DNA of 35,160 nucleotides, from the NCBI GenBank assembly GCA_031414595.1, contig JANNVX010000056.1, forward strand, positions 1 through 35,160, in the 5' to 3' direction. The translations under genes and the position numbers were made by a program. The DNA is from Deinococcales bacterium (GTDB lineage Bacteria > Deinococcota > Deinococci > Deinococcales > JAAFIG01). Position 1 is the stretch's first letter; each line of letters begins with the position of its first letter. Below are positions 144-5,510 of the stretch, one piece after another. Below the pieces are notes generated by a model, which did no database searches, was not told where the DNA came from, and saw only the letters and a list, made by a program, of their open reading frames with translations.

Positions 144-227
144 AGGAATCGGAGGGATTTGAACCCTCGAGACATCAGTCTTTCTTCTTTAGCAAAGAAG
201 TGCAATAAACCACTCTGCCACGATTCC
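144..227 (-). tRNA. tRNA-Ser(GCT), duplicate copy without encoded CCA
   Basis: Identical to 949-1032. GGAATCG/CGATTCC acceptor, CTTCT-TTGCTAA-AGAAG anticodon arm, long variable arm; followed by TTT rather than CCA. Confidence 0.8.
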
Positions 228-229
228 AT

Positions 230-347
230 TGGCGAGTCTGACAGGATTTGAACCTGCAACAATACGTGTTGGAGACGTACTTTTTGCCCCTTAAAGCAGC
301 ACCTGACGGGCTTGGGGCGCTCCCTTAGCTAGTCGGGATTCAGACTC
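230..347 (-). pseudogene. tRNA-Trp(CCA)-like duplicate carrying a ~40-nt insertion between the D arm and anticodon arm
   Basis: Matches 1035-1112 except that 42 nt (280-321) replace 2 nt, plus one D-loop substitution. Confidence 0.7.
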
Positions 348-569
348 TTAAAATTCAAGATTTACAACACTATCAGCAGCAAAATCAGAATTCTTGACTT
401 TCTTAATCAATTCAGAAAGGCGCATCGAAACCGCCATTGAAAACACCTGATGTTCTTCGCCACTTTGTTCTCGAGCCACCGAGATTGGAACACCAGAAAC
501 AACCACCTGCACACCTTTTTTGGTGATGTAAGTGTAATCAATTCTAGTTTCGGGAGCAATCACATTCAT
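348..569 (-). CDS. Putative antitoxin, YgiT-type zinc-finger-like fold but lacking cysteines
   Basis: 73 aa ORF with GAGG RBS; VVVSGVP motif resembles YgiT-type xxIxxVP; lies directly downstream of a DUF4258-like ORF. Confidence 0.5.
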   Translation of the reverse strand: MNVIAPETRIDYTYITKKGVQVVVSGVPISVAREQSGEEHQVFSMAVSMRLSELIKKVKNSDFAADSVVNLEF

Positions 570-597
570 GTTGACCTCGAGTATACGACTAAAGCAC

Positions 598-921
598 TTA
601 AATTGTATGAACTGTAATCACAATGTAGGAATCAAAAAACGAAACCTTGACGCGAATCCAACGCTTATCGGGAATCTGATACTCGAAATTAATTCCTGCC
701 ATACGAGATAAATTATTATTTGGCAAATCTTTAGAAACTGCTTTACCAAACAAAATAGCTTCAAACAAGGCAACTGGTGCAATATCTTCATCTTGGGCTG
801 CTACAAATGCGTGAGGATGAATTTTGATTTCCTCGCGCCATAGTGCAGTATGAATAAAATCCAATTCCCACTCGAGAATATCCGAAGTTGAAAAATCGAA
901 ACCAGTGGGTAAATCAGGCAC
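598..921 (-). CDS. DUF4258-like putative RNase toxin
   Basis: 107 aa; H-P-H-A...I....L.EAI..G and C-terminal IVITVH pattern typical of DUF4258 proteins; TATACT 5 nt before the GTG start. Confidence 0.6.
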   Translation of the reverse strand: MPDLPTGFDFSTSDILEWELDFIHTALWREEIKIHPHAFVAAQDEDIAPVALFEAILFGKAVSKDLPNNNLSRMAGINFEYQIPDKRWIRVKVSFFDSYIVITVHTI

Positions 922-945
922 AAGAAAGTATACATTGAAAATTTT

Positions 946-1032
946 TGGAGGAATCGGAGGGATTTGAACCCTCGAGACATCAGTCTTTCTTCTTTAGCAA
1001 AGAAGTGCAATAAACCACTCTGCCACGATTCC
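946..1032 (-). tRNA. tRNA-Ser(GCT)
   Basis: Cloverleaf with anticodon loop TT-GCT-AA, long variable arm, GGTTCAAATCC T arm, encoded CCA. Confidence 0.9.
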
Positions 1033-1034
1033 AT

Positions 1035-1112
1035 TGGCGAGTCTGACAGGATTTGAACCTGCAACAATACGTGTTGGAGACGTAGACCCTTAGCCAGTCG
1101 GGATTCAGACTC
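1035..1112 (-). tRNA. tRNA-Trp(CCA), atypical D arm
   Basis: GAGTCTG/CAGACTC acceptor, TACGT-CTCCAAC-ACGTA anticodon arm, G73, encoded CCA; A instead of U at position 8. Confidence 0.8.
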
Positions 1113-1117
1113 AAAAG

Positions 1118-1198
1118 AGGAAAGCAAGGGAATCGAACCCTTGAAGCATAAGCCCAGCCGTTTTCAAAACGGTGTCCTCGACCCACCGGACGCTTTCC
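1118..1198 (-). tRNA. tRNA-Ser(TGA), atypical D arm, no encoded CCA
   Basis: GGAAAGC/GCTTTCC acceptor, anticodon loop TT-TGA-AA, variable arm, GGTTCGATTCC T arm. Confidence 0.75.
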
Positions 1199-1200
1199 AT

Positions 1201-1273
1201 TGGAGACCTCGCTCGGAATTGAACCGAGACTCTTTGGTTTGCAGCCAAAGCCCATGCCGTCTGGCTCGAGATC
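1201..1273 (-). tRNA. tRNA-Cys(GCA)
   Basis: TTTGG-CTGCAAA-CCAAA anticodon arm, U73, encoded CCA; weak D arm. Confidence 0.8.
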
Positions 1274-1280
1274 AAGATTT

Positions 1281-1493
1281 TGGTGGAGGAGGCGGGACTC
1301 GAACCCGCATATTCGGCACTGTCGGTTTTAGGAAACCCGCTTCCTGCGGCAAGTTACAAACCCACTCGAGATTCGTCGTCTCGAGTCGCCAGCCAGTGCA
1401 TCCGGAACCTCCGACGGTTTTTGACCTGTGCCGCAGCTATTACGCTTACCGAATCCAAGTTTTGCGGTGCGCTCCCGTTTGCGCTACTCCCCC
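1281..1493 (-). ncRNA. 213-nt tRNA(Ala)-like RNA with a large structured insertion (possible miniature tmRNA)
   Basis: GGGGGAG/CTCCTCC acceptor with G3:U70, A73 and CCA; GCGC-AAACGGGA-GCGC D arm; GCGGG-TTCGAGT-CCCGC T arm; ~160 nt between the D and T arms. Confidence 0.75.
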
Positions 1494-1504
1494 ATGTGAG
1501 ATTT

Positions 1505-1582
1505 TGGTGTTCCTTCAGGGACTCGAACCCAGACTTTTCAGTGTCTTAAGCACTGCGCCTCTACCAATTGGGCTAAAGAAAC
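1505..1582 (-). tRNA. tRNA-Leu(TAA), short variable region
   Basis: CAGTG-CTTAAGA-CACTG anticodon arm, A73, CCA. Confidence 0.85.
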
Positions 1583-1583
1583 A

Positions 1584-1659
1584 TGGTGCGTTCGGTAGGA
1601 GTCGAACCTACAGATTCTCGGGTTTGAACCGAACGAGTTTGCCATTCCTCTACAAACGC
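1584..1659 (-). tRNA. tRNA-Leu(CAA), short variable region
   Basis: TTCGG-TTCAAAC-CCGAG anticodon arm, A73, CCA. Confidence 0.85.
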
Positions 1660-1686
1660 AAATCTCGAGGATTACCCAAGAATTTT

Positions 1687-1762
1687 TGGTACGCCGAGCG
1701 GGACTCGAACCCGCAAGCTCCTCGTTCTAAGCGAGGTGAGTTTGCCATTTCTCTATCAGCGC
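1687..1762 (-). tRNA. tRNA-Leu(TAG), short variable region
   Basis: CCTCG-CTTAGAA-CGAGG anticodon arm, A73, CCA. Confidence 0.85.
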
Positions 1763-1788
1763 TTAATTCCCTCGAGACTCGAGGATTA

Positions 1789-1865
1789 TGGTGTCCATGA
1801 CGGGATTTGAACCCGTAAATTCTTGTCGCTCAAACAAGTGACTTTGCCAATTTGTCTACACGGAT
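1789..1865 (-). tRNA. tRNA-Leu(GAG), short variable region
   Basis: CTTGT-TTGAGCG-ACAAG anticodon arm, A1:C72 mismatch, A73, CCA. Confidence 0.8.
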
Positions 1866-1902
1866 ACAGTGGAAATTTGGTGCATGAACCCATATGATTC
1901 AT

Positions 1903-1978
1903 TGGTGCAGATTGGGAGAATCGAACTCCCGTTATTTGCATGGCAAGCAAGCGTCTTCAACCACTAGACGAAATCTGC
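1903..1978 (-). tRNA. tRNA-Gly(GCC)
   Basis: GCAGATT/AATCTGC acceptor, loop TT-GCC-AT, CCA; discriminator A73 (bacterial Gly usually U73). Confidence 0.85.
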
Positions 1979-1984
1979 AAAAAG

Positions 1985-2056
1985 CCTCTGCTTGTGTGGC
2001 AATTCTTTAAGCGGTGAATTGCCCTTTGCTCCCGCTCGAGCAAAGAAAAACAGAGG
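1985..2056 (-). ncRNA. Unknown three-way-junction RNA element with complementary hairpin loops
   Basis: Closing stem 1985-1990/2051-2056; 8-bp hairpins at 1998-2023 and 2024-2045; loops contain AGCGG and CCGCT. Confidence 0.5.
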
Positions 2057-2076
2057 TGAAGACCCAAAAGGGTCTG

Positions 2077-2150
2077 TGGAGCAGAAGGACAGGTTTCGCA
2101 CCTGCGTCTCGCCTCGGAAAAGGCGCATCTTGCATTTAGAAGACTTCTGC
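2077..2150 (-). tRNA. tRNA-Gly(TCC)-like, 6-nt anticodon loop, GTGC T loop
   Basis: GCAGAAG/CTTCTGC acceptor, U73, CCA; CGCCT-TTTCCG-AGGCG anticodon arm; T arm GCAGG-TGCGAAA-CCTGT. Confidence 0.65.
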
Positions 2151-2151
2151 A

Positions 2152-2227
2152 TGGAGCAGTCAGTGGGAATCGCACCCACATTCTCTGGTTGGAAGCCAGA
2201 CATCTTAAGCTATTGGACGATGACTGC
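2152..2227 (-). tRNA. tRNA-Gly(TCC), GTGC T loop
   Basis: TCTGG-CTTCCAA-CCAGA anticodon arm, T arm GTGGG-TGCGATT-CCCAC, U73, CCA. Confidence 0.85.
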
Positions 2228-2228
2228 A

Positions 2229-2306
2229 TGGAGGTTTTGACAGGAATCGAACCTGCGTTCTTTTGCTTACAAGGCAAGCGCTCGAGCCAACATGAGCTTC
2301 AAAACC
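2229..2306 (-). tRNA. tRNA-Thr(TGT)
   Basis: GGTTTTG/CAAAACC acceptor, loop CT-TGT-AA, CCA. Confidence 0.9.
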
Positions 2307-2349
2307 ATATGGCGTTGCTATTTTAGAACTATTTTAGTATCATTTATCC

Positions 2350-2754
2350 ATGAATCAGATTCTTAATATCCAATTAATTTCAGGTGATCAAATTTTATTA
2401 AGACTCGAGTATCCAACGACTATTTCTCGAGAGCTATTACTTGAGCGTATCCCGCTTCTTTTCGGAGAAGTTAAAGGAGTAAATACTATGAAAGTACCAA
2501 CTGGTGTCTCAAAATCATATATGCAACTTGCTCGTTTTCTTTTACAACAAGAAAATAATGAAATAAAAATTACTTTTTCGCAGCTTGAAAAGGAGTGGAA
2601 TCAACCGTTGCCACGTTCTGCTCGAGTGCATAGAGCTTGGTGGGGAAACACGGAAAATCCGACACATGTCCATGCGAGTTCTTGGATGCTAACTGGTTGG
2701 AAAGTAGAAACAATTGATCTCGAGAATGAGGTTGTCGAATTTATTAGGAACTAA
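2350..2754 (+). CDS. Small hypothetical protein, antisense to the tRNA array; C-terminal domain with TF..LE.....LP.SA..H..WW.N motif (DUF7662-like)
   Basis: 134 aa, AT-rich ORF; TATCAT 6 nt before ATG; an alternative start at MKVPTG has a GGAG RBS. Confidence 0.7.
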   Translation: MNQILNIQLISGDQILLRLEYPTTISRELLLERIPLLFGEVKGVNTMKVPTGVSKSYMQLARFLLQQENNEIKITFSQLEKEWNQPLPRSARVHRAWWGNTENPTHVHASSWMLTGWKVETIDLENEVVEFIRN

Positions 2755-2768
2755 AAAAGTTTTGAAAA

Positions 2769-2844
2769 TGGTGGGTTTCCTCGGGTTTGAACCGAGACCG
2801 CGCAGCTTAAAAGGCTGCTGCTCTACCAGTTGAGCTAAAAACCC
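2769..2844 (-). tRNA. tRNA-Lys(TTT)
   Basis: Canonical cloverleaf, GCAGC-CTTTTAA-GCTGC anticodon arm, CCA. Confidence 0.92.
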
Positions 2845-2870
2845 ATGTGGGACAAAATCAGTCCCATGTT

Positions 2871-2945
2871 TGGTGATCTCGAGGAGAATTGAACTCCTTC
2901 CTGTCGGGTGAAAACCGCGTATCCTGACCATTAGACGACGAGACC
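2871..2945 (-). tRNA. tRNA-Glu(TTC)
   Basis: GGTCTCG/CGAGATC acceptor, loop TT-TTC-AC, CCA; imperfect anticodon stem. Confidence 0.82.
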
Positions 2946-2948
2946 ATT

Positions 2949-3024
2949 TGGAAGGGAAACTGAGAGTCGAACTCAGATTTGACAGCTTCAAAGACTGTTG
3001 CGTTACCAATTACGCTATTTCCCT
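2949..3024 (-). tRNA. tRNA-Gln(TTG)
   Basis: ACAGT-CTTTGAA-GCTGT anticodon arm, CCA. Confidence 0.88.
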
Positions 3025-3035
3025 GTATTTCGGAA

Positions 3036-3119
3036 TCTCGAGCAAGTGATGTATCACATACAGGATTTGAACCTGCTCTCCGTGAGGATAACCAATAACT
3101 GTGATACTTCGGCTCGAGA
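3036..3119 (-). ncRNA. Candidate Y RNA (Ro60/Rsr-binding stem plus tRNA-like T arm)
   Basis: TCTCGAGC-C-GAAG...CACTT-GCTCGAGA terminal stem containing the GNCGAAG motif; inner stem GTATCACA/TGTGATAC; T arm GCAGG-TTCAAAT-CCTGT; no full anticodon arm. Confidence 0.65.
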
Positions 3120-3122
3120 AAA

Positions 3123-3422
3123 TTAAATGCTGACTGGTGCATAAATGCGAACTTCTGTTTCGAGGCGTGAGGCTAATTTTCGGCGTTCGATTTCAAGGTC
3201 AAAATTGGTTTGTAAGTTCAACCAGAAACGTTCTGAATTGCCAAAGAATCGTGCAAGTCGCAAGGCGGTTTCGGTACTAATGCCGCGTTTGCCAAGCACA
3301 ATTTCGTTAATACGACGGGCTGGCACACTGATATTTTGTGCAAGTCGGTATTGGCTAAGTCCAAGTGGCTCGAGAAATTCGTACTGTAGTATTTCGCCCG
3401 GGTGAACTGGTTCAAGTTTCAT
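3123..3422 (-). CDS. higA: HigA/VapI-family antitoxin (HTH XRE), no adjacent toxin
   Basis: HPGEIL..EFL.PLGLSQY.LA....V...RINEIV.GKR.IS..TALRL.RFFG.S..FWLNLQ signature. Confidence 0.9.
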   Translation of the reverse strand: MKLEPVHPGEILQYEFLEPLGLSQYRLAQNISVPARRINEIVLGKRGISTETALRLARFFGNSERFWLNLQTNFDLEIERRKLASRLETEVRIYAPVSI

Positions 3423-3438
3423 GCTTACCTATTGTACT

Positions 3439-3514
3439 TGGTCGAGAGACTTGGAATTGAACCAAGACTTACTGTGCTTCAGACAATCGTGCAGACCCAC
3501 TACACCATCTCTCG
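3439..3514 (-). tRNA. tRNA-Phe(GAA)
   Basis: CGAGAGA/TCTCTCG acceptor, ATTGT-CTGAAGC-ACAGT anticodon arm, CCA. Confidence 0.85.
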
Positions 3515-3516
3515 TT

Positions 3517-3589
3517 TGGGTGCGGTGGTGGGAGTTGAACCCACCAGCCGAGCTTATGAGACTCGGCGCATCACCGGACGCACACCGCA
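3517..3589 (-). tRNA. tRNA with CAT anticodon (Met, or Ile2 if lysidinylated), reduced D arm
   Basis: TGCGGTG/CACCGCA acceptor, loop CT-CAT-AA, CCA. Confidence 0.8.
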
Positions 3590-3617
3590 TTAAAGGTTGA
3601 CGCGCACACCGCATCAT

Positions 3618-3691
3618 TGGTCGAAGATGATGGAATCGAACCATCGTTGCCTGCATATCAGACAGGTGTCCTACCATTGGACGAATCTTCG
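3618..3691 (-). tRNA. tRNA-Ile(GAT)
   Basis: CCTGT-CTGATAT-GCAGG anticodon arm, CCA. Confidence 0.88.
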
Positions 3692-3748
3692 TTTCTCCTC
3701 GAGTTATTAGGAGGTAATACTCGAGGGGTGCGCTATTTTTTAGCGCTC

Positions 3749-3824
3749 TGGTCGGTGCGGTAGGGGTCGAACCTACGACTTCTGCTTTGTAAGAGCAGCA
3801 CTCATACCACTGAGTTACGCGCCG
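3749..3824 (-). tRNA. tRNA-Val(TAC)
   Basis: CTGCT-CTTACAA-AGCAG anticodon arm, CCA. Confidence 0.92.
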
Positions 3825-3856
3825 TTAATCTCGAGAACAGCAAAATTCTCGAGATA

Positions 3857-3931
3857 TGGTGGAAAAGATCGGATTTGAACCGATAACCTTCGCTGTGCAA
3901 AAGCGCTGCTCTCCCGTTGAGCTACTATCCC
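3857..3931 (-). tRNA. tRNA-Ala(TGC)
   Basis: G3:U70, loop TT-TGC-AC, A73, CCA. Confidence 0.9.
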
Positions 3932-3974
3932 ATGTGTGAACTGGTTACTATCCCATGTGGGGGTTTAACCCCTT

Positions 3975-4051
3975 TGGTCGAGCGTGCAAGAATTGAACTT
4001 GCCTAATGTCCTGTGTCCAAAACAGGAGACCCTCCTTGAGTCTGACGCTCG
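3975..4051 (-). tRNA. tRNA-Pro(TGG)
   Basis: C1:G72, A73, CCTGT-TTTGGAC-ACAGG anticodon arm, CCA. Confidence 0.85.
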
Positions 4052-4059
4052 AGAATTTA

Positions 4060-4133
4060 AGATTCGGATAGGAATTGAACCTATGACCTTTGGCTTCGCA
4101 TACCAATGCTCGTTTCCACTGAGCTACCGAATC
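4060..4133 (-). tRNA. tRNA-Arg(GCG), no encoded CCA
   Basis: GATTCGG/CCGAATC acceptor, TTGGT-ATGCGAA-GCCAA anticodon arm. Confidence 0.8.
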
Positions 4134-4141
4134 ATGATTAT

Positions 4142-4218
4142 TGGTGAACCGAGCAGGACTTGAACCTGCGGCTTCCATGTTAGAAGCATGGCACTCTGTT
4201 CCACTGAGTTATCGGTTC
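4142..4218 (-). tRNA. tRNA-Arg(TCT)
   Basis: CCATG-CTTCTAA-CATGG anticodon arm, CCA. Confidence 0.92.
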
Positions 4219-4225
4219 TTAAAGT

Positions 4226-4301
4226 TGGAGAATCGGGCAGGACTCGAACCCGCAACATCCACGTTCGACGCGTGGCGCTCTATCCTTTGAACTACCGATT
4301 C
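4226..4301 (-). tRNA. tRNA-Arg(TCG), G33
   Basis: CCACG-CGTCGAA-CGTGG anticodon arm, CCA. Confidence 0.82.
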
Positions 4302-4331
4302 AGGTACTCGTGTGAACTACCGATTCAAGTT

Positions 4332-4407
4332 TGGTAGCCGCGAACAAGTGGATTCTCGAGGGGCGTAATCATTGGAAGTGATAACCCTCGAGATTCGGCT
4401 CGCAGTT
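4332..4407 (-). ncRNA. Second candidate Y RNA
   Basis: CTGCGAGC-C-GAA...CCACTT-GTTCGCGG stem with the same motif as 3036-3119; inner stem TCTCGAGGG/CCCTCGAGA; ends in ACCA. Confidence 0.6.
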
Positions 4408-4408
4408 T

Positions 4409-4483
4409 TGGCGGTTCTAACGGGAATCGAACCCGTATTGCCTGAGAGACAGTCAAGCATCGTAGCCGTTGGAACATAGAACC
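4409..4483 (-). tRNA. tRNA-Asp(GTC)
   Basis: CTTGA-CTGTCTC-TCAGG anticodon arm, G73, CCA. Confidence 0.87.
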
Positions 4484-4511
4484 ATTTTCATGGTGTCAAA
4501 CACAGACCCTA

Positions 4512-4586
4512 TGGCTGACTCGGTAGGGATCGAACCTACGACAACCTGATTAACAGTCAGGCACTCTACCTCTGAGTCACGAGTCA
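4512..4586 (-). tRNA. tRNA-Asn(GTT)
   Basis: CCTGA-CTGTTAA-TCAGG anticodon arm, G73, CCA. Confidence 0.92.
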
Positions 4587-4591
4587 ATAAA

Positions 4592-4673
4592 TGGATACGG
4601 AAGGATTTGAACCTCCATTGTCTTTTAGACGCTTGGGCTACAACCAAGTGCAATACCGTTCTGCCACATACCC
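4592..4673 (-). tRNA. tRNA-Tyr(GTA), no encoded CCA
   Basis: CTTGG-TTGTAGC-CCAAG anticodon arm, variable arm GTCT-AAA-AGAC, A73. Confidence 0.87.
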
Positions 4674-4707
4674 ATGTGGATGACTGGTATGTCATCCGTA
4701 AAGCTCG

Positions 4708-4909
4708 AGGTGTACGCCCCAAGCGTGTATCGTCTTTAAGAATAATCGTGATTACACCGTACAGTGCAACAGCATTCACGTTTTCTAAGGGAGAAAAATT
4801 TGGCATTCGAGTTGTCAAGGAATTCACTCAGAGACGAGTTCTAGTCGTCGCAAGCAGTTTGGGTGTTGGTGCTTCTCGAGGACACGAATTCTCGAGTTGG
4901 CGTACACCT
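4708..4909 (-). ncRNA. Unknown ~200-nt multi-branched structured RNA
   Basis: Perfect 11-bp closing stem AGGTGTACGCC/GGCGTACACCT enclosing several hairpins; fills the gap between tRNA-His and tRNA-Tyr. Confidence 0.55.
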
Positions 4910-4910
4910 G

Positions 4911-4986
4911 TGGGTTCATCGTCGGGAATCGCACCCGAGTTTCTAGGGTCACAACCTAGCGTCTTGTCTATTGGACGACAACGAAC
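4911..4986 (-). tRNA. tRNA-His(GTG), first gene of the array
   Basis: G-1:C73 pair, CTAGG-TTGTGAC-CCTAG anticodon arm, GTGC-type T loop, CCA. Confidence 0.88.
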
Positions 4987-5012
4987 ACAGTTTTTGGTTT
5001 GTTGCGGGGTAC

Positions 5013-5049
5013 AAAAAATTTGAGCCTATCCATTGCGGGTAGGCTCAAA
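5013..5049 (-). terminator. Intrinsic terminator/attenuator upstream of the tRNA array
   Basis: TTTGAGCCTACCC-GCAAT-GGATAGGCTCAAA followed by TTTTTT on the minus strand. Confidence 0.75.
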
Positions 5050-5068
5050 AGAGTTTGCCTGTTCCGCC

Positions 5069-5215
5069 TTACCTGATTTGATTTTCCAAAATACTCGAGA
5101 ATCTACGACCTTGCCATGTCCCTAAACCTAAATCTGAATTATGTTTCAGATTGGCACAATCGCTTGCCCGCATCGGGCGTGGTGCGTATTGTTTTGTGGG
5201 GTGAGTAAAGTTCAT
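5069..5215 (-). CDS. Putative 48-aa leader peptide (MNFTHPTKQYAPRPMRASDCANLKHNSDLGLGTWQGRRFSSILENQIR)
   Basis: Not in the ORF track; translated by hand. GGAGA RBS before ATG; stop ~20 nt before the terminator hairpin. Confidence 0.55.
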   Translation of the reverse strand: MNFTHPTKQYAPRPMRASDCANLKHNSDLGLGTWQGRRFSSILENQIR

Positions 5216-5273
5216 ATATTTCTCCGTTTGAGGTTTCTAGTCTCGAGGGTGAGGTGTTGTTTCCTCGAGCAGC

Positions 5274-5303: not shown

Positions 5304-5510
5304 GCGTAGATGTGCTTAGTGTGGTACTAAGCCATTTGACGCGTGAGGGCTGCTCCCAAAAACCAATCCACCTGTCTATTTTGACATCTCCCATGCCTAT
5401 CTTGACCTCACAGCAGCACCTGTCTTGACCACATACGCGCACCTATCGGGCGTGGTCGCTTCGGGCTTGGGTCGCTAAAAGCAGAGAATTTCGGTCTTTC
5501 TCACCGAAAC

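Follow-up and report, generated by a model that had tools for sequence, protein, structure and literature searches.

A family-conserved 19-nt core in the His-Tyr spacer of a Deinococcales tRNA array as the putative half of a long-range inverted repeat

The tRNA array and its first spacer

The element considered here is the spacer between the first two genes of a transfer RNA (tRNA) array in a Deinococcales bacterium (assembly GCA_031414595.1, contig JANNVX010000056.1). The whole contig of 35,160 bp was analysed and is called the window in the following; the genome assembly has a size of 4.49 Mb and is 94% complete. On the minus strand of the window, ARAGORN predicted 27 tRNA genes between positions 144 and 4674. 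A 28th gene, tRNA-His, was missed by ARAGORN and recognized through a match to the Rfam tRNA model (4914-4985, 47 bits, anticodon GUG in the alignment); in nine of the 13 relatives' loci that were scanned, ARAGORN itself names the orthologous array gene tRNA-His. The array consists of 28 same-strand tRNA genes at 144-4986 (-), in which all 20 amino acids are represented. Because 41 dispersed tRNA genes, including a separate tRNA-His(gtg), exist besides the 27 ARAGORN predictions on the array contig (68 in the whole genome), the array is a supernumerary long array (L-array), that is, a group of at least 20 closely spaced tRNA genes on one strand that duplicates the dispersed housekeeping set. 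Its first part contains the following features:

4911..4986, minus strand: tRNA-His(GUG), first gene of the array, recognized by Rfam, with an encoded CCA at 4913-4911 and an extra 5' G at 4986
4675..4910, minus strand: His-Tyr intergenic spacer of 236 nt between tRNA-His and tRNA-Tyr, presumably transcribed
4818-4800, minus strand: family-conserved 19-nt core TTGACAACTCGARTGCCAA (= TTGACAACTCGAATGCCAA), found in 13 of 14 genomes
4591..4674, minus strand: tRNA-Tyr(GUA), second tRNA gene of the array, recognized by ARAGORN and Rfam

A first-pass annotation, made from the sequence letters alone, had described positions 4708-4909 as an unrecognised, closed and multi-branched RNA of about 200 nt, forming the second gene of the array. 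The region is indeed non-coding and lies between two same-strand tRNA genes; the only open reading frames (ORFs) of at least 80 amino acids that overlap it, 4453-4827 (-) and 4607-5023 (+), both run through tRNA genes. It also remains unrecognised, with no Rfam match within 4675-4913 at the gathering score or at E-values up to 10, and it carries conserved sequence and some covarying hairpins.

The uncultured Deinococcales family to which the genome belongs is represented by 19 genomes in the collection, 14 of which, this one included, have tRNA-His, the spacer and tRNA-Tyr in the same overall gene order. Genera are labelled g1, g2, g3 and g5 in the following, g1 being the genus of the present genome, and individual genomes and loci carry G and L numbers. 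The orthologous His-Tyr spacers are 96-240 nt long among these 14 genomes. The full spacer was found at 82-90% identity in five of the seven other genomes of g1, and the g5 spacers measure only 96-101 nt. Upstream of the array, the window contains nusG-rplK-rplA; since this flank is shared with just one other genome, the array unit has moved.

A 19-nt core shared by the spacers of the family

The sole block common to the spacers across four genera is the 19-nt core. In 13 of the 14 array-bearing genomes it is invariant save for one A/G position, and in the 14th, G008, it is split by an insertion of ~85 nt, which folds on itself and leaves two core halves that still match the distal site described below. 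Genus-specific hairpins, some of them with compensated changes, stand on either side. We take the functional part of the spacer to be this core, flanked by lineage-specific hairpins, and which 19 bases matter became visible here through the comparison across genera only. Structure prediction assigns the core less pairing than the remaining spacer in 12 of the 14 cases, with means of 0.55 and 0.40 for related genomes that are not independent of each other.

In this genome the core is unique, the next best match having two mismatches, and the 239-nt stretch that contains it is single-copy, so that it is no miniature inverted-repeat transposable element scattered through the genome, an outcome that the first-pass annotation had also considered. 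When complements of the core were sought genome-wide with G.U pairs allowed, 22 of 22 positions matched only at the core's own opposite strand and at most 19 of 22 elsewhere. Scanning genome contigs with the 19-mer yielded 15 loci, 12 in metagenome-assembled genomes of Deinococcales and three in unrelated genomes that lack tRNA flanks as judged by eye. Four matches were obtained in metagenome contigs and 36 in viral contigs (the latter with a 16-mer), none of them with a tRNA (0/4 and 0/36), and blastn against 50,697 phage records gave no match. Among the matches listed for 363 genomes of the order, 344 of them outside the family, no non-family match had fewer than two mismatches. The core matches outside the family are at chance level.

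Two further candidates for the nature of the core were rejected. A similarity to the array promoter region (ATGACAAGACTTGAATGC) was dropped because it is not conserved in other members of the genus. A sigma-54 promoter (plus-strand TGGCAT-N5-TTGT) was rejected because the genome has no Sigma54_DBD match, the same search being positive in four genomes as control; AAA+ matches are unspecific in this respect, since the control was positive in all 14 genomes.

An inverted copy of the core at the distal end of the array in relatives

Wherever the assembly of a relative includes the far end of the array, the last tRNA or tRNA-like gene is followed by the core in inverted orientation, namely in G001, G003, G004, G006 and G007 (g1), G008 (g2), G009 and G013 (g3) and G011, G014 and G015 (g5). 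This distal site lies between the last tRNA or tRNA-like gene and rsr, the gene for Ro60, or just after the last tRNA-Ser, and in g1 to g3 it is placed among Y-RNA-like genes upstream of rsr. The first sign of such a partner was an opposite-strand copy of ACAACTCGAATGCCAA near rsr in two members of the genus, detected in a mismatch-tolerant scan. Owing to the inverted orientation of the second copy, the tRNA-sense strand bears the core plus its complement 3.9-6.6 kb downstream, so that two complementary same-strand segments bracket the stable-RNA block in the relatives. In two Deinococcus genomes, the clusters of tRNA mimics that precede rsr were found to have no inverted repeats bracketing them.

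Independently, a repeat search in two loci of 10.5 and 11.5 kb ranked the core/distal pair first among the inverted repeats of each; in one locus the arms measure 19 nt, match at 100% and are separated by 6,572 nt, and in the other they measure 27 nt, match at 93% and are 4,979 nt apart. Both sites were scored in nine genomes, in which the longest uninterrupted stretches of pairing measured 20, 16, 18, 18, 28, 13, 7, 13 and 15 bp. When the entire locus was searched for duplex partners of the core (site 1), the distal site (site 2) ranked first in all four g1 and g3 genomes tested. Bases 4816-4799 of the window correspond to the segment that is complementary to the distal site in same-genus relatives. 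The contig of the present genome ends 143 nt after the last tRNA-Ser, before the position at which the distal site would be expected.

Differences between genomes are in part mirrored in the two arms. The flank AAGAAAACG(CC), which is particular to g3, appears in both arms of that genus, and the A/G position of the core would form A-U in g1, G-C in G013, G014 and G015, and A.C in G009 and G011. Most differences between the arms give G.U on the tRNA-sense strand, where the same differences would be A.C on the other strand. They comprise a tandem U.G/G.U in G013, G009 and G014, two G.U in G008 and one in G004, the latter if the unassembled site 1 matches the genus. The tally is about 5-7 differences of the G.U type versus 2-3 of the A.C type (G009, G011 and the end of G003), and the compensatory and wobble changes between the arms represent few independent events.

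Y-RNA-like genes and rsr in the neighbourhood of the distal site

Downstream of the array and on its strand, g1, g2 and g3 have tRNA-like genes and rsr, the latter confirmed by TROVE and vWA_Ro60 matches. These tRNA mimics, of which there are two or three, carry an inserted hairpin, CCUUG(C/U)UC...GA(G/A)CCGAAG...GGGUUAUCG (L044 at ~700-1464 (-), L041 at ~3310-3900 (-), L043, L045 and L078), and the same kind of mimic is found upstream of rsr in two Deinococcus genomes (L057 and L058, at 700-1420). The mimics have only weak Rfam matches to transfer-messenger RNA (tmRNA) or tRNA. Their hairpin fits the Ro-binding words quoted in the portion of Chen et al. (2014; PMC4201824) used here, which gives the motif of Y RNA and YrlA as of the GGUCCGA type or GNCGAAN0-1G on the 5' strand of the terminal stem. 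According to the same portion, the Y RNAs of D. radiodurans share a single precursor with a tRNA, encoded upstream of rsr, and Y RNA genes lie within ~4 kb of rsr.

The His-Tyr spacer itself does not have these properties. Its terminal stem is perfect in this genome only and uncompensated in relatives, it shows no T-arm, no D-arm and no Rfam match, and rsr lies 5-6.6 kb downstream of it in relatives, compared with the ~4 kb of Chen et al. (2014). No TROVE match was obtained in the present genome. The Y_RNA model RF00019 gave no match across the order, but it missed the D. radiodurans control too and is weak evidence. None of the six g5 genomes has a TROVE gene, and g5 nonetheless keeps the core and a partner of 12-15 bp; the predicted pairing thus belongs to the array and not to Ro60. 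Word searches of the literature, with supplements outside their scope, returned no report that links a tRNA array to Y-RNA-like genes plus rsr.

Closing stem and local hairpins of the spacer

The proposal of a closed RNA had its starting point in a perfect 11-bp stem adjoining the CCA of tRNA-His. In this genome the two arms are fully complementary and the minus-strand stem begins one base after the CCA, and the enclosed hairpins that had been named (AAGCA/TGCTT, GACGA/TCGTC, TTTTCT/AGAAAA and CGTGA..TCACG) are all found in the sequence. The structural features of the spacer are:

4899..4909, minus strand: 5' arm of the 11-bp closing inverted repeat, GGCGTACACCT, perfect here and not kept in relatives
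4708..4718, minus strand: 3' arm of the 11-bp closing inverted repeat, AGGTGTACGCC (plus-strand letters), perfect here and not kept in relatives
4875..4896, minus strand: hairpin from two copies of CTCGAG (4875-4880 and 4891-4896), of low information
4833..4849, minus strand: hairpin GACGA-CUAGAAC-UCGUC, 100% of cells paired, two of five pairs changed on both sides in the genus
4781..4797, minus strand: hairpin UUUUCU-CCCUU-AGAAAA adjoining the core on its 3' side, largely invariant and with 97% of cells paired
4747..4780, minus strand: hairpin CGUGA...UCACG with inner stem UGCAC-UGUACG-GUGUA (4752-4769), outer stem kept
4678..4697, minus strand: hairpin GGAUGAC-AUACCA-GUCAUCC just upstream of tRNA-Tyr, in three of six genus sequences

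These counts derive from an alignment of six genus-level spacers, from this genome and five same-genus relatives. In this alignment, the closing stem has seven invariant pairs, one pair that varies on one side, no compensatory change, and four pairs with unpaired cells in one to three sequences each; its mismatches in the five relatives are uncompensated. The pseudoknot that had been suggested between CCCAA and TTGGG, of which TTGGG shares one base with the closing stem, has 62.5% of its cells paired and is mostly broken in relatives, and the suggested inner stem ATGCTGT/ACGGTGT is mostly unpaired. Nor is the size of ~200 nt a property of the family, as the spacers of other genera are 96-225 nt long and have the central core alone in common. 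Of the covariation by which the closed unit was to be judged, one part was found, namely compensatory changes in two hairpins within the genus, and the other, compensation in the closing stem, was not. A perfect inverted repeat of 11 bp occurred in one of 300 dinucleotide shuffles of 4675-4913, repeats of at least 11 bp in five of 147 equal-sized tiles of the real window, and the z-score of the fold is -2.8 on either strand and thus not strand-specific. The observation of the stem stands, yet it is little above the background of this genome.

The local hairpins behave differently from the closing stem. Within the genus, compensatory changes preserve an inner stem in a shifted register, TGCAC-TGTACG-GTGTA. 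At a similar 3' position g5 has a hairpin with the loop UGUGAC, and five inner pairs of this hairpin are changed on both sides among three haplotypes. At the position of the UUUUCU hairpin, g3 has a different hairpin, AACGCC/GGCGTT, recognized by eye. Since hairpins are compensated in g1 and g5 and the closing stem is not, selection acts on some local hairpins and not on a closed 200-nt molecule.

Part of the fold is due to a palindrome that is highly iterated in this genome. CTCGAG occurs 178 times in the window, where five copies are expected (for example at 4704-4709, 4875-4880 and 4891-4896), and 23,235 times in the genome, which corresponds to one copy per 193 bp and is seven times the number of the next 6-mer palindrome. 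Any two copies can pair, and the hairpin at 4875-4896 therefore carries little information on RNA structure. For annotation this is a warning that, in genomes with an iterated palindrome of this kind, persuasive multi-hairpin folds of spacers can be largely incidental. A word search of the literature returned no paper that joins 'highly iterated palindrome' and CTCGAG.

A helix that may bracket the array, and its alternatives

The element is best read as the transcribed His-Tyr spacer of the array and not as an autonomous 200-nt RNA gene. On comparison of the sequences, its conserved core makes better sense as one arm of a long-range inverted repeat that reaches beyond positions 4708-4909. The claim of a ~200-nt RNA is weakened, and what replaces it is modestly surprising. 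As to how the two arms act, we tentatively favour pairing in cis at the RNA level. The spacer is probably co-transcribed with the tRNAs and released on their processing. In the polycistronic precursor, the core, as left arm, would pair with the distal site, as right arm, over 12-28 bp, and we infer that this helix would close the 3.9-6.6-kb block from tRNA-Tyr to the last tRNA into one domain. By this, it might protect or stabilise the block or mark its ends for processing, in the way of the leader-trailer helices of ribosomal RNA (rRNA).

Several observations weigh against pairing in cis. The predominance of G.U among the differences between the arms is suggestive and not significant. The energy of the duplex has a moderate lead over that of shuffled queries in G006 (-33.9, compared with -31.6 for the best shuffled query), and in G009 one shuffled query reached -36.7, compared with -36.4 for the real one. 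Conservation of the 5' segment of the core (UUGACAAC) extends to g5, where this segment has no complement, so that pairing cannot account for all of the core conservation. The distal site, the Y-RNA-like genes and rsr were found nowhere in the present 94%-complete assembly. Contigs of four RNA libraries leave 4717-5071 uncovered and give no evidence either way; they touch only conserved tRNA parts at 4627-4716 (one 151-nt contig, which is a relative's) and 5072-5216. The RNase III families PF14622 and PF00636 of Pfam have no match in the genome, nor in the D. radiodurans and Thermus thermophilus controls, so the usual enzyme for such helices seems to be missing. A pairing span of 3.9-6.6 kb also exceeds the precedents in rRNA.

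Moreover, pairs of protein-binding or recombination sites would be just as likely to appear as inverted repeats that change in concert. The two copies might act as DNA, either as an inverted pair of sites bound by a protein that regulates the array and rsr or as recombinase sites that invert the Tyr-to-last-tRNA block relative to the promoter. The copies form inverted repeats of 16-27 bp that flank the block, the presence of genus-specific flanks in both of them would fit gene conversion or a common binding protein, and the conservation in g5 of a core part without complement would suit a binding site, as would the near-dyad TTGNCA-N7-TGNCAA within the core. However, the order His-core-Tyr is the same in 14 of 14 assemblies, the order array-site 2-rsr is the same wherever these lie on one contig, and no recombinase-like ORF was seen by eye downstream in G013 and G015, where no Pfam scan of the ORFs was made, and the array flanks were searched for a recombinase in no genome. 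In g3 and G014 two neighbouring central positions of the site differ (GTGCC versus GCACC), and copy 1 of G008 contains the ~85-bp insertion; each would harm a protein site, whereas an RNA helix tolerates both. The genome holds no further copies, as the operator of a regulon might show. A role as DNA sites is unlikely and still the most serious of the alternatives.

The same complementarity between core and distal site would be available to a released spacer that acts in trans as a small antisense RNA and controls the processing of the Y-RNA-like genes or the expression of rsr. Small RNAs that act by base pairing typically have such a layout, with a less-paired core between stable hairpins. The distance from the distal site to the start codon of rsr downstream is only ~50 nt in G008, and in g1 the distal site is followed by a U-run, GUUGUUUUUUAU. 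We regard this as improbable, since the U-run is not conserved in g3 or g5, the core and its partner persist in g5 without any TROVE gene, the contigs of the RNA libraries give no coverage of the spacer, and no other target stands out, the sole complete match being the opposite strand of the core itself.

Very unlikely is the self-contained RNA of ~200 nt with a terminal stem and a function of its own, possibly as Y-RNA-like ligand of Ro60. The perfect stem, the low folding energy in this genome and the two compensated hairpins would fit such a molecule, but the five closest relatives have kept neither the closing stem nor the pseudoknot, and in g5 the element is down to 96-101 nt. The shared tRNA precursor of the D. 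radiodurans Y RNAs upstream of rsr (PMC4201824, in the portion used here) has a parallel in the relatives, where rsr follows the array; yet T-arm, D-arm and Rfam match are absent from the spacer, g5 retains the core without rsr, and clear Y-RNA-like mimics with the CCUUG..CCGAAG hairpin stand elsewhere in the relatives' arrays. The core holds CUCGAAUG, one base off the YrlA motif GNCGAAN0-1G, but this word lacks the first G, lies in the central core instead of a terminal stem and overlaps the genome-wide CTCGAG. Finally, an internal sigma-70 promoter that drives tRNA-Tyr and the downstream genes is highly improbable: its -35 hexamer TTGACA is perfect in 14 of 14 genomes, a restart point would make sense after the terminator-like hairpin and T-run just upstream of tRNA-His, and TATTCT follows 16 nt downstream in G016 and G017, but g1 and g3 have no TAnnnT 15-19 nt downstream and no -10 at a spacing of 16-18 nt, a promoter scan reports no site at the core, the 13 bases after the hexamer are conserved as strongly as the hexamer, and the distal copy of g1 keeps ACAACTCGAATGCCAA without TTGAC.

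The weight left by pairing in cis and these four alternatives falls to neutral or unknown roles. If the favoured cis pairing is extended to the entire locus, attenuator-like leader, tRNA-His, ~25 tRNAs, Y-RNA-like mimics and Ro60 might constitute one stress-controlled RNA operon, in which the helix between the His-Tyr spacer and the Y-RNA/rsr junction would close the tRNA block. Without RNase III, this helix could be a gate for exonucleases, perhaps guided by Ro60 and Y RNA, that decide between maturation and degradation of the spare tRNAs; as a whole, we consider this extension unlikely. Many bacteria and phages have long spare tRNA arrays, and the handling of the long array precursors is little understood. 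A helix bracketing a whole array would, if true, represent a new means of processing or stabilising the RNA of tRNA operons and could be tested by mutation of just two short sites. The Y-RNA-like/Ro60 link in relatives would tie spare tRNA sets to RNA quality control.

Comparison with known RNA operons

Leader-trailer (processing-stalk) helices bracket 16S and 23S rRNA in bacterial rRNA operons. The arrangement described here is similar in that complementary same-strand segments stand up- and downstream of a stable-RNA block, keep their position and in part change jointly by lineage. It differs in its block, which is 3.9-6.6 kb long and holds ~25 tRNA and tRNA-like genes instead of one rRNA; the array helix would, as predicted from sequence, be a single run of 12-28 bp, and for RNase III cleavage no family match was found in the genome, nor in the controls. 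In E. coli, spacers of tRNA operons can be functional, as exemplified by the 3' external transcribed spacer of leuZ, which is a sponge for small RNAs, and by the rtT RNA of the tyrT operon. These are likewise non-tRNA pieces of a precursor with a base-pairing or regulatory role of their own, which is a prediction for the His-Tyr spacer. Sequence or Rfam similarity to them is lacking; the partner here lies inside the same operon, and no small-RNA partners of the Hfq type are known.

Non-coding RNAs among tRNA genes beside the Ro60 gene, as in the relatives, are also present in the Yrn2-tRNA-Asp-Yrn1 polycistron upstream of rsr in D. radiodurans (PMC4201824, in the portion used here). The His-Tyr spacer differs by the absence of a tRNA-like domain and of a terminal Ro-binding stem, by its distance of 5-6.6 kb from rsr and by its persistence in a genus without rsr. 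With the L-arrays in the portion of Santamaria-Gomez et al. (2021; PMC8421152) used here, the present array shares a spare set, here of 28 tRNAs, besides the dispersed genes, and it has a dedicated upstream control region; that portion makes no mention of bracketing complementarity, Ro60 or Y RNAs. The motif TGTAGTAT of the Anabaena array regulator (PMC10272220) is unrelated to the core. Literature word searches, again with supplements outside their scope, yielded no description of bracketing complementarity in a tRNA array.

Further observations on the array and its surroundings

Upstream of tRNA-His, a region at 5332-5013 (-) is conserved across genera. It comprises a palindrome, GCTTAGT-N5-ACTAAGC (5332-5314), a promoter-like ATGACA-18-TACTAT (5303-5274), a Shine-Dalgarno site with an ORF of 48 codons (5215-5069), in which 'ANL' and 'WQGR' are common to g1 and g5, and a hairpin (5046-5022) with a T-run (5018-5013) ~25 nt before tRNA-His. 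From its sequence, this control region resembles an attenuator of the leader-peptide type that would act on the tRNA array. Two RNA libraries have contigs over 5072-5216, with ~93% identity.

Three other spacers of the array hold blocks of 24-29 nt that are 93-96% conserved in another genus (2077-2105, 3095-3120 and 4378-4401, all minus strand, in the Gly-Gly, Phe-Gln and Asp-Arg spacers). The Leu(taa)-Cys spacer at 1274-1504 (-) contains a candidate tRNA-like RNA of ~222 nt with the ends GGGGGAG.../...CTCCTCCACCA (G3:U70), D- and T-arm-like parts and an insert of ~140 nt. It is 88-94% identical to genus g3 over 215-217 nt, which exceeds the conservation of the tRNAs; it has no match in g5, the genus without rsr, and only a weak tmRNA match (18 bits). 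Possibly, this candidate is a Y-RNA-like partner of Ro60.

At the distal end of the array, tRNA-Ser(gct) occurs twice, at 144-227 and 946-1032, with identical Rfam scores and 718 nt apart, and this duplication is perhaps the cause of the nearby contig end; a weak tRNA-like match (32 bits) lies at 233-303. Among the relatives, G001, G003, G007 and G014 (L080, L045, L079 and L084) have small ORFs that separate the last tRNA-Ser of the array from the tRNA mimics. The first of them starts with M(R/I)RFEWD... in G001, G007 and G014, and G003 shows the second ORF only. The ORFs of G001, G007 and G014 look like what we take to be a toxin-antitoxin pair of the BrnT/BrnA type. G011 has an insertion sequence-like transposase ORF at the position of these small ORFs.

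Tiny nested palindromic repeats (…GCCCG..AGGTGC…GGTCAAGA…), one inside another, are found at ~5160-5190 and 5380-5480 of the window. The same kind of repeat occurs in the T-loop of the array tRNA-His in three of five g5 genomes (L013-L015), with an apparent duplication of 5 bp (GCGAT), and inside the conserved core of G008 (L011).

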